A stretch of 64,000 nucleotides of DNA from Paludibacteraceae bacterium (GTDB lineage Bacteria; Bacteroidota; Bacteroidia; Bacteroidales; Paludibacteraceae). Position numbers and translations under genes: made by a program. The stretch lies in the NCBI GenBank assembly GCA_045639365.1, contig JAZUCY010000010.1, positions 20,615 through 84,614 on the forward strand, in the 5' to 3' direction. The notes beneath the pieces are model-generated. The model did not search any database and had not been told where the DNA came from. It was given only the letters and a program-made list of their open reading frames with translations. Below, piece by piece: positions 13,133 to 44,794 of the stretch (position 1 is its first letter; each line of letters begins with the position of its first letter).

Positions 13133-13291
13133 AATCCAGCGGAATTTGGGTGAAAAGTGTCTAAATCCGCTGAATAAGCGCAGTTAATCCAGCGGAATTT
13201 GGGTAAAAAGTGTCTAAATCCGCTGAATAAGCGTAGTTAATCCAGCGGAATTTGGGTAAAAAGTATATAAATCCGCTGAATAAGCGGTTTT
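13133..13291. repeat. 3 x 53-bp tandem repeat ending at the ATPase promoter
   Basis: Units start at 13133, 13186 and 13239 and have 2-5 mismatches between them. Each unit contains an imperfect inverted pair, ATCCAGCGGAATTT ... AAATCCGCTGAAT. A further half-site GGCGGATTT lies at 13298-13306. Confidence 0.9.
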
Positions 13292-13317
13292 TATTTGGCG
13301 GATTTGAATATTTTTTG

Positions 13318-13325
13318 TACCTTTG
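13318..13325 (+). promoter_or_regulatory. -7 promoter box TACCTTTG upstream of the ATPase gene
   Basis: TAnnTTTG match 26 nt upstream of the ATG at 13351. Confidence 0.6.
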
Positions 13326-13350
13326 CAGCCAAATTAAGAATCTTACTTTT

Positions 13351-14793
13351 ATGAAAATCAAGGGTAGAGAAAATGAAATTGCTCTTTTGGAGCAGTTGTA
13401 TGAGAGTAAACGCTCAGAATTTGTTGTTGTATATGGTCGTAGACGTGTAGGAAAAACATATCTTGTGAGCGAATTGTTTCAATCACGTTTTGCTTTTTAT
13501 CATACTGGATTGTCTCCGATTCAACAAGATACGAAGAGTATCTTATACGAACAACTTCATGCTTTCTATATTACCTTACGTTCATTTGGTTTGGATATAA
13601 CTATTCCTCAACCTCAAAATTGGTTGGATGCATTCGAATTGCTAAAGTCATTGCTAATACAGAAGAGAGACGGAAAACGGCAAGTTGTTTTTATCGATGA
13701 GATGCCATGGTTAGATACTCCTCGTTCAAGTTTTATGACCGCTTTTGAACATTTCTGGAATGGGTGGGGGGCGCGCCAGGAAGATCTTATGCTTATTGTT
13801 TGTGGCTCAGCTACTTCTTGGATGAAACAAACGCTTATAAACAACAAAGGTGGTTTATATAATCGCATCACGCGCGAGATAAAGGTTCAGCCATTCACAC
13901 TATATGAAACAGAGCAGTTGTTGCTTGAGAATGGTATCAAATGGAGTCGTTTTGATATAGCTCAATTCTATATGATTGCTGGAGGTATTCCACAATATAT
14001 CAATTTTGTTCAGCCTAAGCAGAGTTTACCACAGGCTGTAGATTCTGTTTTCTTTGCAGATCAAGCTCCACTTAAACAGGAGTTTGAACGTTTGTTTGCA
14101 TCACTATTTAGTAATGCTGATGAATATATAAAAGTCATACGGTTAATAGGTAAAACACATTTGGGACTTACGCGCAAAGAACTGTTGGAGAAACTCAAGA
14201 AGAAAGATGGTGGCACTTTCTCTACTATTCTTAAGAATCTTGTGATGAGTGATTTTTTGCTTCCTTATACCTCTTTCACTGCTAATAAATGGCAAGAACG
14301 CTACAAATTGATTGATCCTTTCTGCCGTTTCTATTTGACATTTATGGAGAGAAAAAATCAACAAACTGATTTTTGGCAGCAAAATGCTACATCAGCTCAA
14401 ACCAATGCTTGGAGAGGAAATGCCTTTGAAGAACTTTGTTTTAATCATGTTCCTCAAATCAAAGATGCTTTAGGAATACCTCAAGTAAGTACAACCATTT
14501 CAAAATGGACTTTACAAGGAACAGCTACTACCACTAAAGGTTCGCAAATAGATATGGTTATTGATCGTGCAGATAACGTTGTTGACCTATGTGAAATGAA
14601 ATTCTCAAATACTCAATTCACCATTGACAAGAGTTATGATTTAACGCTACGTGAGCGTTTGCAACTATTGTCAGAACAACTACCAAAACGCAAAATACCA
14701 CATCTTGTTTTTATTACTTCTTTTGGTATAAAGCAGAATGAATATGCAGGGATTGTACAAGATAATATTACTCTTGACGATTTATTTAATTAG
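13351..14793 (+). CDS. AAA-type ATP-binding protein (archaeal-ATPase/DUF234-like) with a C-terminal PD-(D/E)xK-like motif
   Basis: Walker A GRRRVGKTYL and Walker B VVFIDEMPW. The C-terminal IDMVIDRADNVVDLCEMKF looks like a D...E.K nuclease-fold motif. The start was moved to MKIKGRENEI, downstream of the promoter box. The gene is visibly AT-richer than its neighbours. Confidence 0.75.
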   Translation: MKIKGRENEIALLEQLYESKRSEFVVVYGRRRVGKTYLVSELFQSRFAFYHTGLSPIQQDTKSILYEQLHAFYITLRSFGLDITIPQPQNWLDAFELLKSLLIQKRDGKRQVVFIDEMPWLDTPRSSFMTAFEHFWNGWGARQEDLMLIVCGSATSWMKQTLINNKGGLYNRITREIKVQPFTLYETEQLLLENGIKWSRFDIAQFYMIAGGIPQYINFVQPKQSLPQAVDSVFFADQAPLKQEFERLFASLFSNADEYIKVIRLIGKTHLGLTRKELLEKLKKKDGGTFSTILKNLVMSDFLLPYTSFTANKWQERYKLIDPFCRFYLTFMERKNQQTDFWQQNATSAQTNAWRGNAFEELCFNHVPQIKDALGIPQVSTTISKWTLQGTATTTKGSQIDMVIDRADNVVDLCEMKFSNTQFTIDKSYDLTLRERLQLLSEQLPKRKIPHLVFITSFGIKQNEYAGIVQDNITLDDLFN

Positions 14794-14926
14794 CCACCAG
14801 AATACCTTCATTAACGTGGGGTCAAGGTCAGATAGCAGCTTTTCCCGTTACCATTCCGTTACCACTCCATAATCTTACGATACTTTGCTGCTACTTTCGC
14901 GAGCTTTAGTCCCTTTGGTATAAATA

Positions 14927-14969
14927 ACAACAACCACCGTTGCAGTGTTGCAATGGTGGTTGTTTGGTT
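14927..14969 (-). repeat. orphan copy of the AACAACCACC...GGTGGTTGTT hairpin terminator
   Basis: Nearly identical to 15366-15412 (CAACCACCGTTGCAGTGTTGCAATGGTGGTTG is shared), but no intact ORF precedes it on the minus strand. Confidence 0.7.
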
Positions 14970-15365
14970 AGATAGTACAGCACAGCTTCGTATCCAGCTG
15001 TGCCCAGCAGCATGCCGAAGTGTTTATTTTTCGGTATAATCCCTAAGCACATTGGATAGTGCATACAATGTCATAGGTGTATCTGGATAACAACATGCAA
15101 ATTTTTTCAAAAAGGAAGAGGAATAATGGTATCGTTTTTTCAAAAAGAAAGAGGAAAGAGCGTTTTTATTTATTGTCAGCGTGCTTGAGTCAGTGGAAAA
15201 TTGAAGATTTATACTGGTGGATTTTCATTAGAAGAATTCTTGTCTATTCCGCTACGCACTTTTGTAGAAACATTGAGATAAATTTTAATTATAATCCATG
15301 CAGCGGAATCGTAACGTACATTACGGTAACAGCTGTTACGATTGTAAAAAATCATTATTTATACA

Positions 15366-15412
15366 GACACCAACAACCACCGTTGCAGTGTTGCAATGGT
15401 GGTTGTTGGTTT
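15366..15412 (-). terminator. hairpin terminator after small ORF 15433..15570
   Basis: About 18-bp stem CCAACAACCACCGTTGCA / TGCAATGGTGGTTGTTGG with loop GTGT, about 20 nt after the stop codon of the small ORF. Confidence 0.65.
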
Positions 15413-15432
15413 GATAGTGATGTACGGAGAGA

Positions 15433-15570
15433 TTATTGCATACCGCCTGTTGGGCTACCTGTTGATACTCCAGGATAGATGTCCAAAAATCCCTTATTAT
15501 TCTGCATTATATCTTTTGCAGTACGAAAACTCACAATCTCGGAGTGAGGTGCAATATATACTTTTTTCAT
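15433..15570 (-). CDS. small ORF, 45 aa: MKKVYIAPHSEIVSFRTAKDIMQNNKGFLDIYPGVSTGSPTGGMQ
   Basis: Hand-translated; under 60 aa, so absent from the track. It lies 71 nt downstream of the 1686-aa gene. A paralog sits in the equivalent position after the 1586-aa gene. It has no signal peptide and no Cys. Confidence 0.55.
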   Translation of the reverse strand: MKKVYIAPHSEIVSFRTAKDIMQNNKGFLDIYPGVSTGSPTGGMQ

Positions 15571-15641
15571 ATTCATAACTTTTCTTTGTGACCGCTTGGC
15601 TACTAAAGTATAGTCAGTAGCCTAAGGTGGTCGAGTTTATC

Positions 15642-18600
15642 TTATTCGATTACTTGTCCTTGGATATTGTATTGTTTCTCACCACGGATAATGATTATTT
15701 GTCCATCCTTCATCACTTTGCGCACATTGTTTTCAGGTGCTACCACTGTTGGAGTAGAAGTAGCTTCATTTTCGCCACAAACTACGCGTGCACGGATTGG
15801 TCTTCCTGTACTATTAATAAAGTATGCACGCAAACCAAGCAATGCAGTAGGATGATTACCTGCGCTATAAATATGCTTGTCAGATGCCAACCAATACTCA
15901 CTTGCTTGAGTCAATCTACCTCCGCCATCCAGTATTGGTTGCATAGTGATAGCACCAATTGTAACAGGATTTTGGGTTGTGTTAATAATCACATTTTCAA
16001 TAGTGAAACCATCTTTTGCATCATAATCATCATCTAGCAATTCTATGATATATGGTGTACCCGCTTTGATGGTTGTTGTTGGATCAAATTGCAAGTAGAA
16101 CATGCCATTTTCATCTTCTCCTACACTATTGAACTCATACACTGTCGCATCACCAAACACAGCTTGTATTTGTGTGGCACCCATATCGAATGGCAGAGTA
16201 AGAGTCAAAATGCTATTTGGCGCAAAGTTGCGAACTACCTTGGCTGTCACCTCTTTACCCTCGAATGGAGTGAGAGCGGTCGTATTGTTAGCATTTTCAT
16301 CTACAATCACCTCTTCTACCACGCGGAAGATATGTTGACTTGCACCAGGTGTTGTCACCTCACCGCTATATGGCATAGCGTATGCAACCAGTTTATGATT
16401 AACGTCACCTACCACATACAGGTTATTGGCATAATCCCATGCAAAATCGTTTTGTGAACGACCCACAGTACTTATACTGATGGTTTTTTCTTCGGTTAAA
16501 ACGGGTTTGCCATCAGCATCCTTGCTTACGCTATATAGCACTGCATTAGTTCCACCTGCAATCACCACTTTGGTAAAGTCGCTATTGAAACGAAAACCTG
16601 CATTATTGGTATTATCTCGGAGTTCTTTGTAGTCTTCTACGCCCTCAGCAGTAAAGTGTACCAAACCAGGACATTTTTCAGTTGTTTCTGATCGATTTTG
16701 TACATACCAAACGCCACCATCTTTATCATATTGTACTTGTGCGTTTGTAGCTGCAAGAAAATAGCTTTTACCAGGACCTGTATTATCATGTGGGAATGCT
16801 TTCGATGGAGCAGCATTCCATGTTGTTGCTGTACCAAGGTTATATTCTGACACTCTAAATCCCTGATAATTAAAACCGTATGTATCCGTATTGGCAGACA
16901 GCATCAAAAGTTGCAAGTCTGCACCTGAACCACGCACATCAAAGCCCGCGTTAGGACCAGCTACGAAGGTAGAACCATTATAAAGGTCTTTTTTCTCATC
17001 TTGTGTTAGACCAGTAAACACCTTAGTCCAGGTATTCATATTATCTGGATTTACTTCCCAAAGCACATCGCCATTGGTGTTGAGCGACGTCACGAAGATA
17101 CGACCGTCATCGGATATACGCACACGGTAAGGTGCATATGCATCTGCACCATTATTATCTGCACGCTTTTCGGTAAAGGTATTACCACCATTGTAGCCAG
17201 GGTCTGTACCATTAGCTGCAGGAGTGAAGTCTGGATTAAACGCGTAGATACCTGCGCCATAGCCAGTACTCAAGTAACCATCTGTGTGTTTCACACTATG
17301 ACGGCTTTCTGTTACAAGGATTCTACCAAAGGTTTTGTTCGCTGGGTTATTATCAATATCGATAGATGTAGGGTAAAGCAATTCATAATTCGTTGCGCAC
17401 TCGGCTACCTCTGTTCGCTTGTCAGATACGGCAATCACATTCCATGTGAGCGCTTTATTTGATGGCAATTGAGCCAACTCGCCGTCCGTCAAAGTTATAG
17501 CATACGTATGCGCACCACGCGTAATACCAGTACTTTGTTTTCTGATGTATTCCACATCGCCATCGCTGAGGGTAATATATACTTCTTTGGCATCTGCATT
17601 CAATGTGTAGTGGGTAGTGAATGTCTTAGCAGCTACATCCCATGTGGCACTCAGATTGTATGCGTATGGGTTCAATGCTGTTGCACTTGGAGCCTCATCC
17701 AATGTGATAGTAAATGTATGCAACGTAGCATCGGTTATCAGTGTGACGGTCAGCGTATTACCATCGGCTTTTACTGCTGTGGCAGCAGCGGTAGCAGCTA
17801 CAGGAGTTGTCAACACACCATTCTTCAACCATTTAGCAGCACCCAAACCATTGGTAATATCCATCACGCGTACGCCTCCCACCTTACCACTAACATCTGC
17901 GTATGGAGCCACCATCAGGTGTTTGCCGTTGACGGTGAGATAAGTCACGCCGTTGTATGTCTTGCCAAGAGTACCTGCTGCCAGTTTTGTACCCTCTGCT
18001 ACGTCTTTATTGGACTGTGATAGATCAGGAATAAAAATTTCAAATGGTTCCACTAAATTGCCATCTACAAAATAATTAGTTTCACCAAATGGAGATGCAT
18101 TCAACTCATAATTTTGACCAATAATATCGGTTGTGTAATTATCCTCTCGCGCCCCAAAAGATGCTGAGTGTGCACCATCTTTTATCGTAAAGAGTGTATA
18201 ACGGAATCCATTATCTGTTGTATTAGCGGTTACACCCGTTATGAATATATAAGCATTGGTAGAAGTTCCCTTGATAGCCATCGTATGACCTTGGATAGAC
18301 CTGAACCACGAAGATGAGAGTTGGGAGGTGAACCATACTGTGGGATTGCCAGCCAAATCATCCCACTTGTAAATGCGCGTTGTACCACGCTTATAACCAG
18401 CATCTACATTTTCATCTTCATTCTGACACACAACCTTGTTACAAGCCACCAACTTGCCGTCATCTGTAATAGCAATGTCTGAAATAGAGAGGTAGTCGCC
18501 AGCATTGTCAGGATCGCGCGCTACAACATTTTTTTGCGAAATGGCTGTAGCCACACCATTGGTCACGCGGTAGATATGAGGTGTACCGTCTGCCTCGTGC

Positions 18601-20702
18601 GTGAGAACGATAATATCCTCACCCAATTGAATAGCGCGTTTCACCACACCAACTATCTCCTCTGGAATCTCAATGGTAGTAGTCAGCGTGTGGAGAGTAG
18701 CGTCGGTTATGAGGGTAATGGTCAGGGTGTTGCCATCTACTTGTACTGCCGTCGCAGTGGCTGTGGCTGCTACAGAAGCATCCAAATCGGCTGTGGCTTT
18801 CAGTTCAGCTGCATCCAAACCGCTGGTAATATCCAATACTTTCACACCTGCGACCTTACCGCTTCCGTCAGCGTATGGAGCCACCATCAGGTGCATACCT
18901 CGAATGCTCAAATAGGTTGCACCATTGTATTGAGCAGGCAAAGTAGCAGCATCCATACGACCGAGGACTGTTACATCCTTACCATTAGCAGCGACTTGGA
19001 ACTCCGATGGCACCATCTTACCTGCATCCATGATAAAATGCCCAGTGCCCTTTGGAGAAGCAGACAATTGCAAATCTTCACCCATGGTATAGGTATAGTA
19101 TGTTGCATTTCCGCCACTGATTGTGCTACCTTGGTATATACGGTCTGATTTGATACCGTTGGTTATCGTAAAATAGTTCATACGTACCGAACCATCGGCA
19201 CCGCCCGCTTCGCCATTTACATTATAATGACGTCCTGTCACAAGGATATTACAAGCAGTAGAAGAACCACTCAATGCCATGGTGTAACCCATGTCAGCGC
19301 GATATGAGTTGGCAGCAAATTGCTCAGAAAACCATTCTCTTGCTCCACCTGTCAAATCATCCCAAATATAGAAACGGTTAGTACCTCTCTTATAACCAGT
19401 ATCGACTTGAGCATCTGCATTTTGACAACGAATATAATTACAAGCCACCAACTTGCCATCATCTGTCACAGCAATATCCGAGATTGAGAGGTAGTCGCCA
19501 GCATTGTCTGGATCGCGCGCTAAAACGCCTTCTTGCGAAATGATAGATACCTCACCATTGGTTACTCGGTAGATATGGGGTGTACCGTCTGCCTCGTGCG
19601 TGAGAACAATAATATCCTCACCCACTTGAATAGCGCGTTTTACCACACCTATTATCTCCTCTGGATGATCAGGAGTCGTCGTCAGTGTATGGAGAGTAGC
19701 ATCGGTTACAAGGGTAATGGTCAACATATTGCCATCTGCTTTCACTGCGGTGGCAGCAGCCGTAGCAGCTACAGGAGTCGCCAAGTTGATAGTTTCTTTC
19801 AGTTCAGCAGCATTTAAACCGTTGGTGATATCCAATACTTTCACACCTGCTACATTGCCACTGGCATCAGCGTATGGAGCCACCATCACATGCTTTCCGT
19901 TAACGGTAAGATACGTAGCACCATTGTATTTCTTGCCGAGAGTACCCTCAGCCAATACAGCAGAAGCCGAATATGCATCACCTTTGCCAGCAGGAACAAC
20001 AAACTCGGATGGTTCGCTCAACTCGCCTTCAAGATACCAATTACCTATTGTAGCAGAAGCATTTAGTTGAAAATGCACACCTTGTGATGGCTCTTTATAG
20101 TATGCTGCTGTAGTATGAAGACCAAACGTAAAGTAACTATCACTTTTATACTCTCCACCGACAACTTTGTGCAAATCCATACGAACAGCACGATTGTTGT
20201 TATGCACAGCAGTTACCAAAATTTCTGCATTCTGAGATGTCCCCTTTAGCGCAAAAGTACGTCCTACATCAGCTACATTTGAATTTCCTGTAGTTTGAGT
20301 GGTAAACCACGTAGAAGGATCTCCTGCAATCTCATCCCAAATATAGAATCGGCTGGTACCTCTCTTATAACCAGTTACTAATTGTTCATCACTATACTGA
20401 CAACGAATATAATTACATGCTACCAACTTGCCATCTTCGGTTACCGCAATATCTGAGATTGAGAGATAGTCACCCAGATTGTTAGGGTCGCGGGCTACCA
20501 CACCTATTAGGGAAACGGCAACTGCCTCACCATTGGTTACTCGGTAGATGTGGGGTGTTCCGTCAGCTTCGTGGGTGAGAACGACAACATGTTCACCATA
20601 TTGAATGGCACGTTTTACCACGCCAACAATGGAGGCTGCATAAGTTGCAACGGAGAACAAACTAATTGTAATAGCAACTAATAATAGAGTTAGTTTTTTC
20701 AT
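15642..20702 (-). CDS. giant repeat-containing surface protein (1686 aa)
   Basis: Signal peptide MKKLTLLLVAITISLFSVATYA. It has three ~325-333-aa tandem repeats (GVVKRAIQ.GE..VVLTHEADGTPHIYRVTNG...DYLSISDIAVT.DGKLVACN). It also has one LNPYAYNL Ig-like plus propeller-like module homologous to the triplicated module of the neighbouring gene. The final ~230 aa are shared with that gene and end in KVMKDGQIIIIRGEKQYNIQGQVIE. Confidence 0.85.
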   Translation of the reverse strand: MKKLTLLLVAITISLFSVATYAASIVGVVKRAIQYGEHVVVLTHEADGTPHIYRVTNGEAVAVSLIGVVARDPNNLGDYLSISDIAVTEDGKLVACNYIRCQYSDEQLVTGYKRGTSRFYIWDEIAGDPSTWFTTQTTGNSNVADVGRTFALKGTSQNAEILVTAVHNNNRAVRMDLHKVVGGEYKSDSYFTFGLHTTAAYYKEPSQGVHFQLNASATIGNWYLEGELSEPSEFVVPAGKGDAYSASAVLAEGTLGKKYNGATYLTVNGKHVMVAPYADASGNVAGVKVLDITNGLNAAELKETINLATPVAATAAATAVKADGNMLTITLVTDATLHTLTTTPDHPEEIIGVVKRAIQVGEDIIVLTHEADGTPHIYRVTNGEVSIISQEGVLARDPDNAGDYLSISDIAVTDDGKLVACNYIRCQNADAQVDTGYKRGTNRFYIWDDLTGGAREWFSEQFAANSYRADMGYTMALSGSSTACNILVTGRHYNVNGEAGGADGSVRMNYFTITNGIKSDRIYQGSTISGGNATYYTYTMGEDLQLSASPKGTGHFIMDAGKMVPSEFQVAANGKDVTVLGRMDAATLPAQYNGATYLSIRGMHLMVAPYADGSGKVAGVKVLDITSGLDAAELKATADLDASVAATATATAVQVDGNTLTITLITDATLHTLTTTIEIPEEIVGVVKRAIQLGEDIIVLTHEADGTPHIYRVTNGVATAISQKNVVARDPDNAGDYLSISDIAITDDGKLVACNKVVCQNEDENVDAGYKRGTTRIYKWDDLAGNPTVWFTSQLSSSWFRSIQGHTMAIKGTSTNAYIFITGVTANTTDNGFRYTLFTIKDGAHSASFGAREDNYTTDIIGQNYELNASPFGETNYFVDGNLVEPFEIFIPDLSQSNKDVAEGTKLAAGTLGKTYNGVTYLTVNGKHLMVAPYADVSGKVGGVRVMDITNGLGAAKWLKNGVLTTPVAATAAATAVKADGNTLTVTLITDATLHTFTITLDEAPSATALNPYAYNLSATWDVAAKTFTTHYTLNADAKEVYITLSDGDVEYIRKQSTGITRGAHTYAITLTDGELAQLPSNKALTWNVIAVSDKRTEVAECATNYELLYPTSIDIDNNPANKTFGRILVTESRHSVKHTDGYLSTGYGAGIYAFNPDFTPAANGTDPGYNGGNTFTEKRADNNGADAYAPYRVRISDDGRIFVTSLNTNGDVLWEVNPDNMNTWTKVFTGLTQDEKKDLYNGSTFVAGPNAGFDVRGSGADLQLLMLSANTDTYGFNYQGFRVSEYNLGTATTWNAAPSKAFPHDNTGPGKSYFLAATNAQVQYDKDGGVWYVQNRSETTEKCPGLVHFTAEGVEDYKELRDNTNNAGFRFNSDFTKVVIAGGTNAVLYSVSKDADGKPVLTEEKTISISTVGRSQNDFAWDYANNLYVVGDVNHKLVAYAMPYSGEVTTPGASQHIFRVVEEVIVDENANNTTALTPFEGKEVTAKVVRNFAPNSILTLTLPFDMGATQIQAVFGDATVYEFNSVGEDENGMFYLQFDPTTTIKAGTPYIIELLDDDYDAKDGFTIENVIINTTQNPVTIGAITMQPILDGGGRLTQASEYWLASDKHIYSAGNHPTALLGLRAYFINSTGRPIRARVVCGENEATSTPTVVAPENNVRKVMKDGQIIIIRGEKQYNIQGQVIE
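17700..20635 (-). repeat. three tandem ~975-999-bp coding repeats inside the 1686-aa gene
   Basis: The GVVKRAIQ-coding 24-mers lie at 20601, 19626 and 18627, giving offsets of 975 and 999 bp. The off-frame plus-strand ORFs at 18534 and 19533 mirror each other. Confidence 0.85.
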
Positions 20703-20765
20703 AATTACTGGGTATTTGATTATTACGGTATAAGTGTGTTATTGGAGTACTTTTCCAAAATCGCA

Positions 20766-20773
20766 CAAAGTTA
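20766..20773 (-). promoter_or_regulatory. -7 promoter box (TAACTTTG on the minus strand) for the 1686-aa gene
   Basis: The plus strand reads CAAAGTTA. The downstream leader GGTATTTGATTAT(T)TACGG is conserved with the leader of the 1586-aa gene. Confidence 0.55.
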
Positions 20774-20857
20774 CAACAAAAATTATGAATATGCAAGATA
20801 TTTATAAAAAAAAGTGTAAAATATTATGAAAAACACGTAAATTGTTGTAAAATAGAC

Positions 20858-20897
20858 ACCAACAACCACCCCTGCCGCTCGCAGAGGTGGTTGTTTG
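20858..20897 (-). terminator. hairpin terminator after small ORF 20942..21076
   Basis: AACAACCACC(20861-20870)/GGTGGTTGTT(20885-20894) plus 3 further pairs. The stem words are the same as in the 15366 and 14927 copies. Confidence 0.65.
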
Positions 20898-20941
20898 GGT
20901 TAGTATTTGCAGGTAGCTTTCTGCAACTACCTTATGGAACA

Positions 20942-21076
20942 TTAGTCTATAGAACCAGGCACACCTGTTCCATCGTACAAGTTAAGTGGCCCTACTGGAG
21001 GGCTGCCAGCCATTATAGCATTAGTACTTAAGAGCAGAACGGCTTTGGTCTCTGGTGTTTGATATACTTTTTTCAT
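20942..21076 (-). CDS. small ORF, 44 aa: MKKVYQTPETKAVLLLSTNAIMAGSPPVGPLNLYDGTGVPGSID
   Basis: Hand-translated and absent from the track. It lies 42 nt downstream of the 1586-aa gene. It shares the MKKVY..P N-terminus and a Gly/Pro/Ser/Thr-rich tail with ORF 15433..15570. Confidence 0.55.
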   Translation of the reverse strand: MKKVYQTPETKAVLLLSTNAIMAGSPPVGPLNLYDGTGVPGSID

Positions 21077-21118
21077 AACTTCAATATTCAATGATTCAAC
21101 TATTCAATGATTTCAGGA

Positions 21119-24100
21119 TTATTCCATTCGTTGTCCTTGTACATTATACTTTTGCTCGCCGCGAATGATAATGAGTTGACCATTCTTCATCACTTTGCGC
21201 ACATTGTTTTCCGATTGTGCTTCTACCATTGGGATAGAGGTGGCTTCGTTGTCTTGGAATACCACGCGAGCTCGGATTGGCAGTGATGAAGTGGATTCAA
21301 AGTATGCACGCAAACCTACGAGAGCCATATTGTATGTTCCTGCGTTATACAAACCACCTCCTGACAGATAGTACTGATTGTTTTGATCCAATGTGTCACC
21401 TGCATCTAATACAGGAATCATTGATACTCCATCTTCGGTAACAGGAGACCATGACAAATCAATCTCTACACCTTCAATAGTGAAACCATCTTCTGCATCG
21501 TATCCACTTGTAGCGGTAACGAGGATATATGGTTTGCCTGCGGTGATAGAAGTAACAGGAGTGAATTGCAAGTGAACTTCAGTTGCATTATATTTTTCAA
21601 CATTGTAGAATTCGTACACTTTCGCATTGCCGAAGAAAGTACTAATTTGCGAAGCACTCATATCGAATGGCAGAGTAAGAGTCAAAATGCTATTTGGCGC
21701 AAAGTTGCGAACAACATTCGCAGTCACCACATCACCCTCAAATGGAGTAAGAGCGTTCGTGTTGTCTGCATTTTCATCGATGGTCACCTCATACTCTACA
21801 CGGAAGGTATATTGAGAAGCAGCAGGGGTAGTTACTTCGCCGTCGTATGGCAAGCGGTAAGCCGCTGCCCACTCGTTGCTATTACTTACAGCATAGAAGT
21901 TATTCGCATAATCCCATGCAAAGTCATTGATATTGCTACCAAGAGTTGCCAAACTAAATCCAGATTCCCATGTCAATACTGGTTTGCCTGTTCCATCTTT
22001 GCTAACTTTGTAGAAGTTTACAAATGCATTATCTGCAATCGCAACTTTTGTAAAGTCATTATTGAATCGGAAACCAGCATTGCGAGTTAGATTACGTAGC
22101 CATTTAAAGTCTTCTACACCACTTGTGTTGACATGAACCAAACCAGGCTCAGCCTCTGTCGTCGCGCCACGATATTGGATATACCACACACCACCATCCT
22201 TGTCAAACTGCGCATTGGACTGGTTAGTAACAAGCATATAATCAGCACCTGCAACCTCTTTTGTAGGTTCTGTACTCCATGTAGAAGCCGTACCAAGATT
22301 ATATATATGACACTTAAAGTTAGCCACTTGTGCACCTGGTAAGGAAGCCGAAAGCATCAAAAGTTGGAGATTAGCACCTTCTCCGCGCACATCGAAACCA
22401 GCATTGGTACCCGCAACAAACTTACCACTTCCATCTTTCAATGTATAACCATCATTTGTACCTTGGAATACAGTAGTCCAATCATTCAAATCTTCAGTAT
22501 TCACTTCCCAAAGATACTCACCACTACCATCTTGTGCTGTTGCGAAGATACGACCATCATCAGAGATACGAATACGACGAGGAGCAAACATATTAGCTGC
22601 CGTACTGAATGTCCTGTTACCGTTGTATTTACCCGTAATTTCAAATGCTGGGTCGAAAGCAAAAATACCCGCACCGAAACCTTTACTGATATAAGGGTTT
22701 GTACTTGTAGTATTCTTAACGGATTGCATTGCCTCATTCACCAACACCATTCCAAAATTCTTACTTTCTGGGTTATTATCAATATCCACAGAAGATGGGT
22801 GAAACAATTTATGCTTTGTTGCGTACTCCTTAACCTTATCCACAGAAGTGCCATTTACCACCATCTTCCAAGTCAAATCAGTATTCATAGGCAAGCCTTC
22901 GGTTGGAATAGTAATCGAGTGTACGCCCTTAGTCAGGTCTGTACATGGCACTAGTTTAACCTCTGTAGTACCATTCATAATGACTACTTTCGCACTATTA
23001 GCAGGCGCATTGAGTGAATAATTTATCTTCACATTCTTACCACCATCTATCAACTCGGAAGAAAGACCGTATGCAAATGGGTTGAGGTCTGAAGTTGTAG
23101 AAGGCACCCAACCTGCCAATGGTGTAAATTCATATTGTGTAGCACATGGAGTAGTAATTGTTCCGCTGTAAGGGAGAGCGAAAGCAATTATTTTCTCTCC
23201 GGAGTTTCCTACTACATATAAGTTTTCACCAAAGTCCACTGCAAATTCATTCAAGTTTCGACCAATATGATTTGCCGCCACATTCCATTTTGGAGTCAAT
23301 GTGACTTTACCCGCAGCGTCTTTTCCTATAGTATATACTGTAAAGTTACCTACTGTAGAACTTGTACGAGCCTTGCCTTTAAAAAGCATACCATTGTGCA
23401 CTAACACACCGTCACCACCATAAAACTCAGCATTTTCAGAATAGTAGTCTCTATTTCCGTTTTTATCAAAGTGTACTAAGTTTGGTTGATTTGCGTTGCC
23501 CGCACGGCTTGCACCAAACCAATAACCTCCTTCACCATCGTAAATAACTTGGGCGTTAGAATACACATATCCATACTTACCATTAAAGCAAGTTATCGGT
23601 GTTGGTGCTTTGGAATTATCCCATTTAGTATCTTCACCTAAAGCATATTCATCTAAACGGAAGAGACTTTGTGTCTGACCTGTTATTCCTGTTCCACTTG
23701 CAGAATATAATAAGAGTTTCAAATCTTTTCCGCTACCGATGACATCCATACTCACATTCATTCCCGCTAAGAATTGACCATCTGATGTGGTAAAAGCATT
23801 TCCTTTCATTGTAGTACTTGTTTTTTCTTGTCCACGAGCAAGAACTTCCGTCCACGTTTGAAGATCTTTTGAAAGTTCCCAAACAAACTTACCATTCAAA
23901 TCACAAGAAGAAACAAAAATACGACCATCATCGGAAATTTTCACGCGCCATGGTTGGTATCCGTATGATGCCCATTGGCGAGTAAAATCTATCCCACCAT
24001 TATACACTTTTCCGTCAGTTGCAAACTCTGGTGTAAATGCATACAAACCAGCACCTTTACTAGATGATAAATAACCTGACGCAGGAACTGCTTGCATTGC

Positions 24101-25879
24101 CTCTGCAGCAAGAATTCGACCAAAGTACTCTGAATTTGGATTCTTGTCAATTGCCAAACCGTGAGGACAATAGAGTGAATAGTAAGTGGAAACTTGTGTA
24201 GGTACAGATTTGGTAGTACCTTTTACTTCTACACTCCATGATAATTTACGATTGAGTGGAATATTATCACCTGCCACAGAAATGACTTCTGTGTATGAAC
24301 CACGCGTTTTACCGCTGCAAGCAATACGTTTCAACTCCAAATTGCCATCCTTAATAACAATATCAACAGAATTTGCATTCGCATTGAGGGTGTAGTTGAT
24401 AGTTAATACTTTGTTCGTATTATTGAAAGTAGATGTCAAATTATATGCGTATGGGTTAAGTTCCGATGCCTTAGCCATTTGTGCTGCCGAATTAATCGTA
24501 AACTCATACTTAGAAGCGCAGGGGGTGGAAACTGAACCAGAGTAAGGAAGTGCATAAGCAAGAATCTTTTCACCGTTGTTTCCAATTACATATAAATTCT
24601 CAGCAAAGTCAACCGCAAACTCATTATGATTACGTCCTAATCCTGTTGATGCAACTTTCCATTTTTGGGTCAAAGTGGTTTTACCATTTGCATCCTTCCC
24701 TATCGTATAAATACCAAAATTACCATCTGTAGAAGAAGTACGAGCCAATCCTTTAAAAAGTAAACCTTTATGTACCAAAACTCCACCTCCGCCATAGAAA
24801 GTTGTTGTCTCATCTCTAAAACCTTCTGTACCGTCAGCCTTAATATGCACTAAGTTTGGTTGACCAGCATTGCCACCACGACTACCGCCAAACCAATAGC
24901 CACCTTCCCCATCGTAAATAAAATCCACATCTGTGTGCGTTACACCAAATTTACCACCATTGATAATATTCTTTGGAGTTCCTGTAAATGTTGTTGCAGT
25001 GCCAAGTTTGTATTCATCCAAACGATAACCAGATTGGTTGTATGCAATACCCTTATTATTAGTAGAATATAGCAACAGTGTTAAATCATCTCCGCTTCCT
25101 TTTACGTCCATAGCAACATTCAAACCAGCAAAGAAAGCACCATCCTTCTTTATGGTATAATCAGTAGCATCATTCGTTCCATATATAACAGGTGTCCAAG
25201 TGTTTAAGTCTTTAGAAACTTCCCAAACTACCACCCCATTTATATCACAAGAAGAAACAAAAATACGACCATCTTCTGAAATTTTCACCTGATATGGTTG
25301 ATAGCCATTACTTGTTAATTTGCGGGTAAAATCATTTCCACCTGTGTAACGAGTTTTATCTGTTGTAAAATCTGGATTGAACACATAAAGACCAGCACCC
25401 TTTCCTCCAGAAATATACGTTGTAGCAGATTTACTTGCTACTGCATGCATTGATTCGCTAACTAAAATACGGCCAAAGTTTTCTGATTCGGGGTTATTAT
25501 CAATAGCTAACCCATGAGGACAATAAAGGCCATAGGTTTGTGATTCTTGCGTTGGTTTCGTAACTGAAGTACCCGTCACATCTATTCTCCAACTGAGTTT
25601 TTTGCCGAGAGGCATATTAGGATTATCAAGGGCAACGGTTGCAGTGTACGAACCTTTATCTAGACCTTTGTCATTAAGATTAACGGTCTTGATAACCTTG
25701 TCACCATCTAGTAGAACAAAATCCACATTTGTAGCGGTCGCATTGAGTGAATAATTAACCGTCAACGTGGTCTGATCTGGATTAAGACTAGATGTCAATC
25801 CATATGCAAATGGATTCAACGCTGCAAACGACAGCGTGCTGAATAGCATTGCAACTAAAAATAGAGTAAGTTTTTTCAT
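21119..25879 (-). CDS. giant repeat-containing surface protein (1586 aa), paralog of 15642..20702
   Basis: Signal peptide MKKLTLFLVAMLFSTLSFA. It has three ~455-aa modules. Each begins with LNP[FY]AY[GN]L plus an Ig-like segment, followed by DNNPES.NFGRIL...ISDDGRIFVSSCD propeller-like repeats. The module period is about 1.36-1.38 kb. The C-terminal ~230 aa are shared with the 1686-aa gene and end in KVMKNGQLIIIRGEQKYNVQGQRME. Confidence 0.85.
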   Translation of the reverse strand: MKKLTLFLVAMLFSTLSFAALNPFAYGLTSSLNPDQTTLTVNYSLNATATNVDFVLLDGDKVIKTVNLNDKGLDKGSYTATVALDNPNMPLGKKLSWRIDVTGTSVTKPTQESQTYGLYCPHGLAIDNNPESENFGRILVSESMHAVASKSATTYISGGKGAGLYVFNPDFTTDKTRYTGGNDFTRKLTSNGYQPYQVKISEDGRIFVSSCDINGVVVWEVSKDLNTWTPVIYGTNDATDYTIKKDGAFFAGLNVAMDVKGSGDDLTLLLYSTNNKGIAYNQSGYRLDEYKLGTATTFTGTPKNIINGGKFGVTHTDVDFIYDGEGGYWFGGSRGGNAGQPNLVHIKADGTEGFRDETTTFYGGGGVLVHKGLLFKGLARTSSTDGNFGIYTIGKDANGKTTLTQKWKVASTGLGRNHNEFAVDFAENLYVIGNNGEKILAYALPYSGSVSTPCASKYEFTINSAAQMAKASELNPYAYNLTSTFNNTNKVLTINYTLNANANSVDIVIKDGNLELKRIACSGKTRGSYTEVISVAGDNIPLNRKLSWSVEVKGTTKSVPTQVSTYYSLYCPHGLAIDKNPNSEYFGRILAAEAMQAVPASGYLSSSKGAGLYAFTPEFATDGKVYNGGIDFTRQWASYGYQPWRVKISDDGRIFVSSCDLNGKFVWELSKDLQTWTEVLARGQEKTSTTMKGNAFTTSDGQFLAGMNVSMDVIGSGKDLKLLLYSASGTGITGQTQSLFRLDEYALGEDTKWDNSKAPTPITCFNGKYGYVYSNAQVIYDGEGGYWFGASRAGNANQPNLVHFDKNGNRDYYSENAEFYGGDGVLVHNGMLFKGKARTSSTVGNFTVYTIGKDAAGKVTLTPKWNVAANHIGRNLNEFAVDFGENLYVVGNSGEKIIAFALPYSGTITTPCATQYEFTPLAGWVPSTTSDLNPFAYGLSSELIDGGKNVKINYSLNAPANSAKVVIMNGTTEVKLVPCTDLTKGVHSITIPTEGLPMNTDLTWKMVVNGTSVDKVKEYATKHKLFHPSSVDIDNNPESKNFGMVLVNEAMQSVKNTTSTNPYISKGFGAGIFAFDPAFEITGKYNGNRTFSTAANMFAPRRIRISDDGRIFATAQDGSGEYLWEVNTEDLNDWTTVFQGTNDGYTLKDGSGKFVAGTNAGFDVRGEGANLQLLMLSASLPGAQVANFKCHIYNLGTASTWSTEPTKEVAGADYMLVTNQSNAQFDKDGGVWYIQYRGATTEAEPGLVHVNTSGVEDFKWLRNLTRNAGFRFNNDFTKVAIADNAFVNFYKVSKDGTGKPVLTWESGFSLATLGSNINDFAWDYANNFYAVSNSNEWAAAYRLPYDGEVTTPAASQYTFRVEYEVTIDENADNTNALTPFEGDVVTANVVRNFAPNSILTLTLPFDMSASQISTFFGNAKVYEFYNVEKYNATEVHLQFTPVTSITAGKPYILVTATSGYDAEDGFTIEGVEIDLSWSPVTEDGVSMIPVLDAGDTLDQNNQYYLSGGGLYNAGTYNMALVGLRAYFESTSSLPIRARVVFQDNEATSIPMVEAQSENNVRKVMKNGQLIIIRGEQKYNVQGQRME

Positions 25880-25921
25880 AAAATATTTGGTATTTGATTA
25901 TTTACGGTTTTCAAAAGCGTG

Positions 25922-25929
25922 CAAAGTTA
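25922..25929 (-). promoter_or_regulatory. -7 promoter box (TAACTTTG on the minus strand) for the 1586-aa gene
   Basis: The plus strand reads CAAAGTTA, about 43 nt upstream of the ATG at 25879. Confidence 0.55.
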
Positions 25930-26316
25930 GTGAAAATAAACGGAATACGCAAATAATTTTGAAGAAAAGTTAATTTTTTATTGGAAGTAGTATAAGATTT
26001 TAGATTTGAAAGGGTATTTTCGCCCAATAAGAAGACAAATAGCTCCTACTCGCTGCGCTCGTCCGCTGAAGCTTTAAAGACAAATCTAATGACCGATTCG
26101 GGTTAAAAGACAATACCGACAACAAAGAAAACGTACGGCTATGCCGATCGTTCGAACGAAGTGAGATAAGAATTGTAAACAATTACAATGGGTTACCAAG
26201 AGTTAAGATTAAGCGGACGCAAGGAGATAACAATAACCCTCACGCGCGCGGCGCGCGCAACATAATATTAAGGTGAAGCAGATGTTATATAGTGAAGTAA
26301 ATGTTATATAACGCAG

Positions 26317-26340
26317 AAAACCGCCCACGCAGGCGGTTTT
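26317..26340. terminator. isolated bidirectional-looking hairpin AAAACCGCC-CACGCA-GGCGGTTTT
   Basis: GC stem flanked by an A-run and a T-run in a 650-bp non-coding stretch. No annotated transcript ends here. Confidence 0.4.
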
Positions 26341-26392
26341 CATATATGGATAAGGGTGAAATCTATGCTTCTTTCCTTAGTCAAAGTAGCGG

Positions 26393-26447
26393 AATAACCT
26401 ACTAATCACCTATTAATAACCTACTAATCACCTACTAATAACCTATT
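26393..26447. repeat. 2.5 x 22-bp tandem repeat AATAACCTACTAATCACCTAYT
   Basis: Units at 26393-26414 and 26415-26436, plus a partial unit at 26437-26447. One mismatch. Confidence 0.85.
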
Positions 26448-26505
26448 ATTTTCGAGGAAAAACAAACTTTTGTTCATTTCTCTTGCTTTTGTTCATTTTT
26501 TGTTG

Positions 26506-26513
26506 TACCTTTG
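26506..26513 (+). promoter_or_regulatory. -7 promoter box TACCTTTG upstream of the DUF4294 gene
   Basis: TAnnTTTG match 12 nt upstream of the ATG at 26525. Confidence 0.5.
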
Positions 26514-26524
26514 CAGCAGAATAC

Positions 26525-27106
26525 ATGAAAAGAAATATCGTCATACTACTCTTAACGAGCTGTTGGTTCATTCTGTCGCATGCCCAGCATACGGTCGATT
26601 CGGTACGGTTGCAAGTCAGCCAAAACGACACTTTTTATCTCGCACGAATGCAAGACGTCTGGGTCTATCCACAAATGGTATTCAAAAACAAACAACAAGA
26701 ACGCTTCTATTGGAAGACCATTCGTGACGTCAAACGCACCCTTCCACTTGCCAAAGAACTGGCCAAAGAGATGCAAGTCGCAGACCAACAGTTGGCATTA
26801 TTGCCCGACGACAAAGCCCGTCGCAAATGGTGGCGACAGTACGAGAAATACCTATTCCAAAAGTACGAAAATAATTTCCGACGCATGACCGCCTCCCAAG
26901 GGCAAATGCTCATGAAACTCATGGATCGCGAGAGCGACCGCACGAGTTACGAAATCATCCAGCATTATCGCGGAAAAGCCAGTGCTAACTTCTGGCAGTT
27001 CGTTGCCAAACTATTCAAGAATGACCTAAAAGAAGGCTATGATGCTGCGGACAAAGACCGCATCGTGGAGCGCGTGATTAACCTTGTGGAGGCAGGGCAA
27101 CTATAG
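26525..27106 (+). CDS. DUF4294 domain-containing protein
   Basis: Signal peptide MKRNIVILLLTSCWFILSHA. The stretch RMTASQGQMLMKLMDRESDRTSYEIIQHYRGKASANFWQFVAKLF matches my memory of DUF4294. Confidence 0.7.
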   Translation: MKRNIVILLLTSCWFILSHAQHTVDSVRLQVSQNDTFYLARMQDVWVYPQMVFKNKQQERFYWKTIRDVKRTLPLAKELAKEMQVADQQLALLPDDKARRKWWRQYEKYLFQKYENNFRRMTASQGQMLMKLMDRESDRTSYEIIQHYRGKASANFWQFVAKLFKNDLKEGYDAADKDRIVERVINLVEAGQL

Positions 27107-27350
27107 TCCCCTACGGTTCTCTTATTCATATTTAGTGCAAGACTATTAGCCTAACGATTATGTTATCAACAACTTAAACAACATTTTTCTTCAACAACAA
27201 CTGCGCGCGCCAACATGCGCTTGCCATGACATTTCTATGGTGATTTTATATTTCATGCCGCTCGCGATGTTGGCGAGCGGAAGGTTGTTGATTTTTTTGT
27301 TGTTTTTGTTGTTGGAAGTTTATTTTCTTGCACGAAATTTGAATACCCCC

Positions 27351-28709
27351 CTATGCAGTAAACTGGCGCATGTCGCGGTTGATGACAATAGCCGCAGTAA
27401 TCACAGACAGGCTGTCGCTGATTGGCCATGCCCACCATACGCCCCAAATAGCATCAAAACCGAAACGCTGGAACACTATAGGCAAGCACAATATCAGCGG
27501 TATGAGGAATAATACCTGACGAGTTAGACTCAGGAAGATGGCTTTTGGCGCCTTGCCAATAGAAGTGTAGAAGTTACCCGTAATCATAGGAAAACCGATA
27601 GCAAACATCACGCATAGCATGATACGAGCAGGTGCAATAGACTGTGCTATCAGTGCTTCATCGTGCGTGAAAAGGCGAATAAAACCTTCGGGCCAAATCA
27701 CGCCAAACAACCACAATACACCCATCACGCAAGTCGCACAATACACCGACAACTTGAACGCTCTCAACATACGCGCATACAAATTCGCGCCGTAGTTATA
27801 TCCCACAATAGGTTGCATACCCTGCTGAATACCCATGACAATCATCACAAAGAAGAAGATAAAACGGTTGGTCATACCGAAGGTAGCAATAGACATGTCA
27901 CCGCCATAACGTTTGAGCTGGTTGTTGAGCACAATCACCACAAAGCAAGCTGCCATGTGCATGAGGAAAGGTGCAGTACCTATACCCAACGCACGCATGG
28001 TAATATCACGCTTCAGGCGCCATATACCGCGGTGAAAATAGATGACCTCCTTGGGATTGAGGAATATAATCAACTCTATCACCACGGACACCAATTGCGA
28101 GAGCATGGTTGCCAATGCAGCACCGCGCACACCCATATCCAACACAAAAATAAAGATAGGGTCTAATACCACATTCAATGCCACCGCCAAGATGGTTGCG
28201 TACATGGATATACGTGGATGACCAATGGAGCGCAACATACTATTCAGACCATAGTAGATATGGGTGAGTATATTGCCCAACAATATTATCTCCATATAAT
28301 CGCGCGCGTAAGCAATCGTGGCATCGCTGGCACCAAAGGCATACAGGATAGGGTCAAGCCAAAAGAGTCCCACCACCATGACCAATGCACCTAAGAGCAC
28401 ATTCAGAATCACCACGTTCGCCAGCACATCATTGGCAGAACGGTAGTCTTTCTCACCCAATTTGATAGCCACCAGCGAACTGGCACCCACACCCACCAAT
28501 GTGCCAAAGGCAGCGCAAATATCCATAAAGGGTTTGGCAACCGTCAGTCCCGACAATGCCAGAGCACCCACTCCGTGGCCGATAAAAATGGAGTCCACCA
28601 TGTTGTAGAGCGACATGGCGGTCATGGCTATAATGCCTGGAGTAGCGTACTTGAGCAGTAGGCTACGGATAGAAGCTGTGCCGAGTTCGGTTATCTTAGG
28701 TGCTGACAT
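27351..28709 (-). CDS. MATE family efflux transporter
   Basis: 452 aa with about 12 TM segments. The N-terminus LLKYATPGIIAMTAMSLYNMVDSIFIGHGVG is typical of MATE transporters. Confidence 0.85.
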   Translation of the reverse strand: MSAPKITELGTASIRSLLLKYATPGIIAMTAMSLYNMVDSIFIGHGVGALALSGLTVAKPFMDICAAFGTLVGVGASSLVAIKLGEKDYRSANDVLANVVILNVLLGALVMVVGLFWLDPILYAFGASDATIAYARDYMEIILLGNILTHIYYGLNSMLRSIGHPRISMYATILAVALNVVLDPIFIFVLDMGVRGAALATMLSQLVSVVIELIIFLNPKEVIYFHRGIWRLKRDITMRALGIGTAPFLMHMAACFVVIVLNNQLKRYGGDMSIATFGMTNRFIFFFVMIVMGIQQGMQPIVGYNYGANLYARMLRAFKLSVYCATCVMGVLWLFGVIWPEGFIRLFTHDEALIAQSIAPARIMLCVMFAIGFPMITGNFYTSIGKAPKAIFLSLTRQVLFLIPLILCLPIVFQRFGFDAIWGVWWAWPISDSLSVITAAIVINRDMRQFTA

Positions 28710-43998: not shown

Positions 43999-44439
43999 TT
44001 ACTCCACCACTTGCTTGAAGGTCAAGGTGTGGGTCACATCTCGCTCGCCTACTTTATCTTTCTCGGCATAACGTACAGATAGTACCAATTCATCAGCCGT
44101 ATGATTTTCTATACGAAAGAACTGGGCTGTTTCGCTGTAGTATTTAGTGGCATACTCCGTTGTTATGATGTTGTCGGACACTGTGTAGCTGTATGTATCT
44201 GCCACATCCGAAACCAGCAATTGGCCATCTTTGGTAAACTCCCATACCATACCCACTTCGTATGACTCGGATACAAAAATGTCCTCCGTGTCATTTACAA
44301 AATAGTATGTACGACTTGCATCAATTACTTCCCATTTGCCAATAATCGTCATCTCATCCAGACCATTGTCGCAAGAGGTCATCAGTATCGAGCCAAGTAG
44401 CACCAATAAATTAGCTATCCAAAATTTAATTGCTTTCAT
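43999..44439 (-). CDS. hypothetical lipoprotein (lipocalin-like size)
   Basis: 146 aa with a lipobox (LMTSC). A minus-strand TACCTTTG promoter box lies at 44469-44476. Confidence 0.5.
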   Translation of the reverse strand: MKAIKFWIANLLVLLGSILMTSCDNGLDEMTIIGKWEVIDASRTYYFVNDTEDIFVSESYEVGMVWEFTKDGQLLVSDVADTYSYTVSDNIITTEYATKYYSETAQFFRIENHTADELVLSVRYAEKDKVGERDVTHTLTFKQVVE

Positions 44440-44575
44440 ACGTTATTTATAAGGGACTATTTTTGTCGCAAAGGTACTGCTTTTTTTTCAAACAACCAAA
44501 CTTTCTTGGAGTATAAACCCCAAAAGTCACTACTTTTTCTAAACATGTCCTATTTATGACCTTGAACTATCAATC

Positions 44576-44758: not shown

Positions 44759-44794
44759 AGTTTTTTGTTGGTTGTCATGCTGCCGTTCCCGTTA

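Follow-up and report, generated by a model that had tools for sequence, protein, structure and literature searches.

Two tandem units on the minus strand

The window analysed here is a 64,000-nucleotide stretch of contig JAZUCY010000010.1 from a Paludibacteraceae bacterium (GCA_045639365.1). It contains two adjacent operon-like units of two genes each, both on the minus strand. In each unit a promoter box and a conserved leader precede the gene of a giant protein with a Sec-type signal peptide (1586 or 1686 aa), which is followed by a spacer of 42 or 71 nt, a small ORF beginning with MKKVY and a GC hairpin that closes the unit. The components of the two units are as follows.

25922..25929 (-), unit 1 promoter box TAACTTTG, which fits the Bacteroidetes -7 motif TAnnTTTG
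25889..25907 (-), unit 1 conserved 5' leader CCGTAAATAATCAAATACC, 9 nt before the ATG
21119..25879 (-), giant A, 1586 aa, with a Sec signal peptide, three ~470-aa repeats, a C-terminal module and a short tail
21263..21796 (-), giant A C-terminal module of ~178 aa, predicted beta-sandwich (motifs TLTLPF, AGKPYI, LRAYF, RARV)
21122..21262 (-), giant A linker plus C-terminal tail ..EATSIP..VRKVMKNGQLIIIRGEQKYNVQGQRME, a putative short T9SS (type IX secretion) sorting signal with permuted motifs
21077..21118 (-), spacer A, 42 nt, AT-rich, with a direct repeat of ATCATTGAATA
20942..21076 (-), pepA, 44 aa plus stop, MKKVYQTPETKAVLLLSTNAIMAGSPPVGPLNLYDGTGVPGSID
20861..20895 (-), terminator-like hairpin A, a 15-bp stem AACAACCACC../..GGTGGTTGTT followed by a T-rich run
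20766..20773 (-), unit 2 promoter box TAACTTTG
20711..20728 (-), unit 2 conserved 5' leader CCGTAATAATCAAATACC
15642..20702 (-), giant B, 1686 aa, with a signal peptide, three ~330-aa repeats, one A-type repeat, the module and the tail
15786..16319 (-), giant B C-terminal module, paralogous to that of giant A
15571..15641 (-), spacer B, 71 nt, with the small hairpin GGCTACT..AGTAGCC and the motif AGCGGTCACAAA shared with three other loci
15433..15576 (-), pepB, 45 aa from MKKVY (15570) or 47 aa from MNM (15576), then a stop, MKKVYIAPHSEIVSFRTAKDIMQNNKGFLDIYPGVSTGSPTGGMQ
about 15370..15409 (-), terminator-like hairpin B (CCAACAACCACC..GGTGGTTGTTGG)

The two leaders share the form CCGTAA(A)TAATCAAATACC and lie 8-9 nt before each ATG. 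The promoter box is also present in four loci (L001, L002, L010 and L011), where the leader recurs before the orthologous and paralogous giant genes; the function of the box as a promoter is inferred. The signal peptides of the giants, MKKLTLFLVAMLFSTLSFA and MKKLTLLLVAITISLFSVATYA, were judged by inspection. The giants are 51% identical over their last ~700 aa, while the two peptides are only 38% identical to each other. The hairpin stems (AACAACCACC/GGTGGTTGTT) are identical in the two units, although the loops differ, and they are better conserved at the DNA level than the peptide-coding DNA. A Pfam search of giant A gives only a weak FlgD_ig hit.

The layout given in the preliminary description is therefore confirmed, with a few corrections. 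The gene pepB may start two codons earlier, at MNM, and the claim that the peptides are unannotated is only partly true, since both are already present in public protein collections as predicted proteins, pepB from an NCBI record. Where such peptides carry a name it is 'hypothetical protein'. Moreover, the arrangement is not a local curiosity but one instance of a gene-pair family seen in about 70 further loci, so chance is excluded.

A conserved peptide gene linked to a C-terminal module

The small ORFs are protein-coding. They define a family of 40-67 aa found in Paludibacteraceae and Prevotella, in which the N-terminal part MKKxYxxPxTEAIxLLGxNAIMAGS is followed by a fast-evolving, net acidic tail rich in Gly, Asp and Pro. 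All 70 unique homologues have intact ORFs without stops or frameshifts, although the upstream spacers are unrelated between subfamilies. Pairwise differences at the three codon positions are 0.27, 0.17 and 0.45. The first 25 codons are under strong purifying selection, with pN/pS of 0.18, while the tail evolves almost freely (pN/pS 0.74). Residues M1, K2, K3, Y5 and P8 are invariant across 68 peptides, and only 1 of 70 contains a Cys. A signal peptide or membrane segment is rejected, since the longest hydrophobic run has a median of 5 residues and a maximum of 8, and Glu, Gln and Asn lie inside the candidate h-region. The AlphaFold2 model of the peptide alone shows almost no regular secondary structure, only a 4-residue helix, at mean pLDDT 69.

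A broad alignment of the peptides was too diverse to seed a search for loci, and a narrower one was used instead. Of 40 genome loci seeded with the peptide, 37 have a large upstream ORF on the same strand ending in the same tail. In these genome loci 42 of 42 upstream genes carrying the ~180-aa C-terminal module have the peptide 11-176 nt downstream, while 0 of 5 genes with the same tail but no module do. The reciprocal, module-seeded metagenome search found the peptide in 25 of 33 loci, and most of the eight loci without it are truncated contigs or tail-only matches. The window itself encodes a BspA-type protein with a canonical tail but no module, and this gene has no peptide. The partner is therefore defined by the module rather than by protein size, and the Prevotella partners are only about 400 aa. 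A strong hairpin follows nearly every peptide gene, and the gaps of 11-24 nt in some subfamilies leave no room for a separate promoter.

The AlphaFold2 model of the giant A module has pLDDT of about 90 over residues 1-178. A Foldseek comparison of the module with the PDB gave a best E of 0.19 and TM of 0.16 or less, which is uninformative, and PDB sequence searches with the module and peptide profiles gave nothing. No Pfam or NCBIfam match was found for nine different members of the peptide family at E-value limits of 1 or 10, and there is likewise no Pfam, NCBIfam or Rfam match for the module and no Rfam match for the peptide. Literature searches for a T9SS-linked small ORF found nothing relevant. 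The pair thus belongs to no described family in the libraries and papers searched, and it supplies a new domain and a new peptide family. It also shows that gene annotation without ORFs below 60 aa misses conserved, selected genes. The pair is abundant in rumen and gut Paludibacteraceae and Prevotella, where the partners are large adhesin-like proteins that shape how these bacteria meet fibre, host and each other.

The preliminary description had argued that the conserved position of the peptides in both units makes them real and functionally tied to the giant proteins, and knew of no described function for such a pairing. These points are supported, except that the tie is to the module and not to giant size, and that the functional tie itself remains an inference from linkage.

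Relation of the upstream proteins to type IX secretion

Components of the T9SS are encoded in the window, namely PorZ, which scores 681 bits against NF052228, GldH, and a protein with an FGE-sulfatase domain that would, judging by this domain, be PorK/GldK-like. However, the sorting-domain models TIGR04183 and PF18962 hit neither giant, nor the isolated tails at E up to 10, although PorZ of the same window is hit. The upstream proteins may resemble the short-CTD cargo of Prevotella intermedia (PMC11969387), which has a Sec signal peptide and a flexible linker with a ..T|G/S-I.. site, and ends in a 40-51-aa C-terminal three-strand element carrying the Y..G(R/K), GxYI and K motifs. The Prevotella-type partners (..YYDLQGRKV..GLYIxNGKKVxxK) fit this pattern. 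In the tails of the window the motifs are in swapped order (IxNGQLIIIR before KYNVQGQ) and, for giant A, three short strands are predicted at low pLDDT; their role as T9SS signals is putative. No downstream peptide is mentioned in that paper.

A dedicated accessory gene beside a large T9SS-secreted surface protein, repeated for several paralogues in one genome, is known for type B CTD cargo with a cognate PorP/SprF-like gene, for example sprB-sprF (PMC9143113). However, the PorP/SprF-like partners are outer-membrane proteins of normal size, probably beta-barrels of several hundred residues with signal peptides, that anchor type B CTD cargo. The partner described here is a 40-67-aa disordered peptide without a signal, the cargo tail is not type B, and there is no sequence similarity. 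Private secretion chaperones such as the T3SS class I chaperones are probably likewise small, acidic, cytoplasmic products encoded beside the gene of the exported protein that they serve. They appear, however, to be folded dimers of about 130 aa that bind the N-terminal region of effectors and co-evolve with them, while the peptide sits behind a C-terminal module and does not co-diverge with it. This lack of co-divergence weakens the chaperone role that the preliminary description had offered as one possibility.

Possible roles of the peptide

The function of the peptide can only be inferred. It is tentatively suggested, as the leading but unproven reading, that the peptide is a cargo-linked accessory factor. 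Being translated from the same mRNA, next to the last-made part of the cargo, it would use its N-terminal motif as a short linear docking signal, probably as an extended strand, while the tail would be a disordered, acidic appendage. The docking target would be an invariant surface, either the few invariant motifs of the module or a shared export component that handles module-bearing cargo, and the peptide would thereby assist or time the export or surface display of this class of T9SS-type proteins. A shared target is consistent with the N-terminal part being 72% identical on average, against 31% for the module. However, peptide and module identities are uncorrelated (Spearman -0.08), giving no sign of pairwise co-adaptation, no natural fusion of the two exists, and the peptide has no export signal, whereas the module functions outside the cytoplasm. 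The failure of the sorting-domain model to recognise the tails of the giants also counts against this reading, which is made without a model of the complex and without expression or proteomic evidence.

An exported leader-core peptide, like a RiPP (ribosomally made, modified peptide), bacteriocin or pheromone, is a less likely alternative. The conserved 25 residues would then be a leader read by a processing or export machine encoded elsewhere in the genome, and the variable tail would be the released product, as with prochlorosin-type precursors scattered around a genome. The short size, the conserved N-terminal part preceding a hypervariable tail, the several copies per genome, the conservation of the N-terminal part independently of the neighbouring gene, the disorder of the peptide alone and a semi-conserved aromatic-Gly motif in 35-41 of 68 tails are in agreement with this, and the invariant Y5..P8 may recall the YxxP leader motif bound by RiPP recognition elements. 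However, a double-glycine site requires a nearly invariant Gly at -2, while position 24 is G in only 37, V in 14, A in 7 and N in 7 of 68 peptides, and Ser25 is followed by Pro in 24 of 68. The lasso leader motif YxxPxL...Tx is not matched either, since position 10 is Thr in 55 of 68 peptides and Leu in none of the 68 tallied, although one MEK-start relative outside that tally (locus L068) reads YIAPSL. The ring-forming Asp/Glu at core position 7-9 occurs in 26-47% for any assumed core start. No known leader family is hit in Pfam or NCBIfam, the latter apparently holding GG-Bacteroidales, NHLP, Nif11 and lasso-leader models. No peptidase, ABC exporter, radical-SAM, Asn-synthetase-like cyclase or recognition-element gene recurs near the pair in 40 loci or is present in the window, genes elsewhere in the genome lying outside this comparison. 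Furthermore, this model does not explain the strict linkage to module-bearing genes. The precursor-peptide option of the preliminary description is weakened by the double-glycine and lasso results and by the absence of linked enzymes. More doubtful still is a trans-acting cytoplasmic regulator, by which each paralogous surface-protein operon would report its own expression, the shared N-terminal motif binding a common regulator or export-capacity sensor in a manner perhaps resembling the UpxZ trans-locus inhibitors of Bacteroides capsule loci. The family has multiple paralogues in tandem arrays whose halves recombine, the N-terminal motif is conserved across paralogues regardless of partner divergence, and the peptide is cytoplasmic and made in step with the cargo mRNA. 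But no regulator gene is linked, the peptide has no DNA- or RNA-binding features, the tail shows little constraint that could give locus specificity, and the idea is purely analogical.

It is very unlikely that the act of translation matters rather than the product, for example that a terminal mini-ORF protects the 3' end of a long mRNA or tunes the terminator, or that the ORF is a by-product of a conserved DNA or RNA element. The position of the ORF between the cargo stop codon and a strong hairpin, and the better conservation of the hairpin stems, would agree with such a role. However, amino-acid-level constraint is strong while synonymous sites vary freely (pS 0.46-0.70), RNAalifold finds no shared structure and Rfam finds nothing. 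Stop-codon read-through or fusion is rejected because the gaps range from 9 to 176 nt in all frames and spacer A contains stops. An immunity or antitoxin role is also rejected, since the conserved parts of the system are the C-terminus of the cargo and the N-terminus of the peptide, the opposite of polymorphic-toxin logic, and the module has no toxin-like match.

T9SS cargo of the common (type A) kind is thought to need only its own C-terminal signal, and a dedicated small gene behind a whole class of such proteins would add a missing player. A more far-reaching possibility, which is not excluded but appears unlikely at present, is that the MKKxYxxP peptides and the module together form a previously unrecognised two-component system of Bacteroidales surface-protein biogenesis. 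In this case a cytoplasmic peptide of about 45 aa, encoded in cis, would be required for export, anchoring or display of a whole class of T9SS-type proteins, and such peptides would be the first small-protein accessory factors of that pathway; alternatively, the peptide is itself exported by an unknown route and loaded onto the module at the cell surface. The peptide is not a copy of a cargo segment, as its profile-profile comparison with the module and tail gave a probability of 0.2%. Clustering of neighbouring genes over 40 genome loci shows that only the cargo family recurs, and the neighbouring ATPase_2/DUF234 gene is rejected as a third partner, being present in only about 8 of 75 loci and in either orientation.

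The two tandem units and their small genes

The region contains two tandem units on the minus strand, each comprising a putative promoter box and leader, a giant gene, a spacer, a small ORF and a hairpin, as follows.

Unit 1:
25929..25922 (-), TAACTTTG
25907..25889 (-), leader CCGTAAATAATCAAATACC
21119..25879 (-), giant A, 1586 aa, followed by a 42-nt spacer
20942..21076 (-), pepA, 44 aa
20895..20861 (-), hairpin with a 15-bp stem

Unit 2:
20773..20766 (-), TAACTTTG
20728..20711 (-), leader CCGTAATAATCAAATACC
15642..20702 (-), giant B, 1686 aa, followed by a 71-nt spacer
15433..15570 (-), pepB, 45 aa, or 47 aa from an upstream MNM
about 15409..15370 (-), hairpin

Both giant proteins start with a Sec-type signal peptide, and they are 51% identical over their last ~700 aa, while the two peptides are only 38% identical. 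A pattern scan of all six frames revealed no third ORF of this kind in the window, and no RNA family of Rfam was found in 14800..27400.

Both peptides are already present as predicted proteins in the public collection, in clusters of 14 and 12 near-identical variants that differ by substitutions and never by frameshifts. Word-indexed searches identified relatives down to 68% identity, and an exhaustive profile search of 1.84 billion representative proteins gave only 28 hits at E <= 1e-3, nearly all of which are peptides of 40-51 aa with the same head, MKKxYxxPxTEAIxLLGxNAIMAGS, and a variable tail. Across 46 and then 70 unique gene sequences from the retrieved loci, the pairwise differences by codon position are 0.27, 0.17 and 0.45. 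In close pairs pN/pS is 0.18 for codons 1-25, with synonymous sites diverged by 0.46, while it is 0.74 for the tail. Residues M1, K2, K3, Y5 and P8 are invariant, and S25 is present in 64 of 68 peptides. The DNA immediately upstream of the ATG is unrelated between subfamilies, and RNAalifold found no shared structure in the conserved 78 nt. Therefore, the constraint is on the protein.

Association of the peptide gene with a C-terminal module

A peptide-seeded search using one genome per species returned 40 loci, nearly all from Paludibacteraceae MAGs of ruminant or other animal guts; several loci came from the same genome, and two came from Prevotella(ceae). In 37 of the 40 loci the peptide gene is located 11-176 nt downstream, on the same strand, of a large ORF of 680 to more than 1990 aa that ends in ..ENGQLIIIRDGVKYNVQGQKL or a close variant. 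In one locus from Prevotella sp. (L042, 328..471) the family peptide (MKKTYQKPETQVVLMQHRTCLLSGSP..) follows an upstream ORF that ends in ..SLASLRRVCIS without a recognisable tail, which may be an exception or a damaged partner. When every ORF with the tail was counted in all of the loci obtained, 42 of 47 were found to have the peptide. The remaining five encode proteins of 380-526 aa that have the tail but lack the preceding ~180-aa region, the module, with motifs TLxLPF, AGxPY(I/L), LRAYF and RARV.

The reciprocal, module-seeded search of metagenome contigs was performed with the last 225 aa of giant A and gave 33 loci, 25 of which have an MKKxYxxP ORF 9-69 nt downstream. Of the eight loci without it, three have less than 200 nt of contig left after the stop, and four or five match only the last ~40 residues. 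This set also shows that the partner need not be giant, since the Prevotella-type partners are about 400 aa long and comprise a signal peptide, an N-terminal domain, the module and a canonical ..YYDLQGRKV..GLYIxNGKKVxxK tail. Their peptides are 47-67 aa long with strongly acidic ends such as DPESREFSFDE and GWDDEEEDWEDEDE.

An internal control is provided by the BspA-type leucine-rich-repeat protein of the window (50610..54623), which has a canonical tail but no module, and has no peptide. An ORF starting with MKKIVCLFIASLL begins 19 nt after this gene and runs off the window end (54642..64000, plus strand, more than 3100 aa). It contains repeats of the type YEYNPSVPGNP, and likewise has neither the module nor a peptide. 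Clustering of all neighbouring ORFs over 40 loci showed that only the cargo family recurs (35 loci), while nothing else was found in more than 5 loci. An ATPase_2/DUF234 ATPase gene lies next to the pair in about 8 of 75 loci, in either orientation (window 13252..14793, plus strand; L001 5904..7223; L005 561..1679; L026, L037 and L018, all being loci of the collected set), but this is probably incidental, since the family appears to be expanded in Bacteroidales. Almost every peptide gene is followed within 110 nt by a strong GC hairpin, the sequence of which differs between subfamilies. The unit is therefore cargo, then peptide, then terminator.

AlphaFold2, with an alignment of 20 sequences, models residues 1-178 of the last 225 as a confident beta-sandwich (pLDDT about 90), while the final 45 residues are modelled as a low-confidence linker plus three short strands. 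Foldseek found no PDB neighbour of the module (best E 0.19), and sequence profiles gave no matches in PDB, Pfam or NCBIfam. The window encodes PorZ, GldH and a protein with an FGE-sulfatase domain, apparently the domain of PorK/GldK-like T9SS proteins, so the organism has a T9SS. Ye et al. 2025 (PMC11969387) showed that 48 of 80 cargo proteins of Prevotella intermedia use 'short' sorting domains, which are 40-51 aa long, form a three-stranded sheet, follow a ..PT|GI.. cleavage motif and carry motifs B (Y..G R/K), D (GxY-I) and E (K). The Prevotella-type partners fit this description. However, the tails of the giant proteins in the window (21122..21262 and 15645..15785, minus strand; EAT|SIP ... 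IxNGQLIIIR ... KYNVQGQ) carry similar motifs in swapped order and are not hit by TIGR04183. They look like a circular permutation of the Prevotella short T9SS sorting signal, in which the IxNGQLIIIR strand, resembling motifs D and E, comes before KYNVQGQ, resembling motif B. The same genome also has the canonical order, in the BspA protein ending in ..VYTIMGVQIK..GIYIQNGKKFIVQ. Thus, the assignment of the giant proteins to T9SS cargo is a reasoned inference rather than a demonstrated fact.

Properties and possible roles of the peptide

The peptide has no signal peptide or membrane segment, and its longest hydrophobic run has a median of 5 residues. A Cys is present in one of 70 peptides, and the mean net charge is -2.2. 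The tail is composed of 22% Gly, 13% Asp and 9.5% Pro, with almost no Lys or Arg, and the last residue is Asp or Glu in 40 of 68 peptides. Modelled alone, the peptide has no stable structure (pLDDT 69). The N-terminal 25 residues are 72% identical on average across 741 pairs, whereas the modules of the partners are 31% identical, and the two measures are uncorrelated (Spearman -0.08). Therefore, the head behaves like a signal read by something invariant and not like a surface co-adapting with its own partner, yet, apart from the possible exception of L042, the gene is found behind module-bearing genes.

The best-supported reading, which remains tentative, is that of a cargo-linked accessory peptide, the head of which docks as a short linear motif on an invariant surface of the module, or on a shared export factor that handles such cargo; its synthesis beside the C-terminus of the cargo would be guaranteed by gene order. 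Alternatively, it could be an exported leader-core peptide, a possibility favoured by the architecture but considered doubtful, since the family fails both the double-glycine test (Gly24 in only 37 of 68 peptides, with Pro26 common) and the lasso test (no fixed ring acid), no linked enzymes or exporter were found, and the linkage to module genes is left unexplained. The role of a trans-acting regulator among paralogous units rests only on analogy and seems somewhat less likely still, while a function of translation alone or of an RNA element is very unlikely, being contradicted by the amino-acid constraint.

Where members of the family carry a name, it is 'hypothetical protein'. No curated family, solved structure or searched paper describes either the peptide or the module, and the tests of the peptide for membership in a known kind failed. 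The nearest analogy in logic is the arrangement of cargo and cognate partner known for type B CTD proteins with PorP/SprF-like genes (PMC9143113), but that partner is an entirely different protein. The finding is thus regarded as new by exclusion, with function untested.

Variation among loci and neighbouring features

Another strain (locus L001) carries a different giant protein of 1533 aa with the same last 230 aa, an identical pepA and the same hairpin, and upstream of it lies yet another cargo-peptide pair, with the peptide MNKKVYQQPLTQSMAVKPASILCASVKGILYDPNAADGLISD. In two further loci, L010 and L011, a B-type leader and signal peptide are joined to an A-type C-terminus with a pepA-type peptide. 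The units occur in tandem arrays (L010 485..6138, L011, and L001 1..5784) in which the N-terminal and C-terminal halves are shuffled between strains, so that the same 5' leader and signal peptide can be joined to a different C-terminus and peptide, and the reverse. The passenger part recombines freely, while the module, tail, peptide and terminator travel together.

In one subfamily (loci L004, L020, L029, L033, L034, L036, L038, L039 and L044) the spacer between cargo and peptide, preceding the peptide ATG, contains a GC hairpin (GAGAATGCGGC..GCCGCATTCTC) followed by 3-4 tandem TTTACAC heptamers. Other subfamilies have GGGAGGGGCTGGGGGTAGGC, TTTAAAAC repeats or AGCGGTCACAAA, the last of which is shared by the spacer following giant B in the window. 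A separate control of peptide expression by these elements is possible.

In the roughly 1.4-kb stretch without a long ORF between unit 1 and the MatE gene, a GC-only palindrome, TTGCGCGCGCCGCGCGCGTGA, is located at 26240..26260 (minus strand). At 44000..50000 of the window a VapE-like protein, a Kinase-PolyVal protein and a YhcG/DUF1016 nuclease are encoded together, followed by a drop in G+C to 0.35-0.40 from 50 kb on, which suggests an integrated mobile element or a foreign segment.
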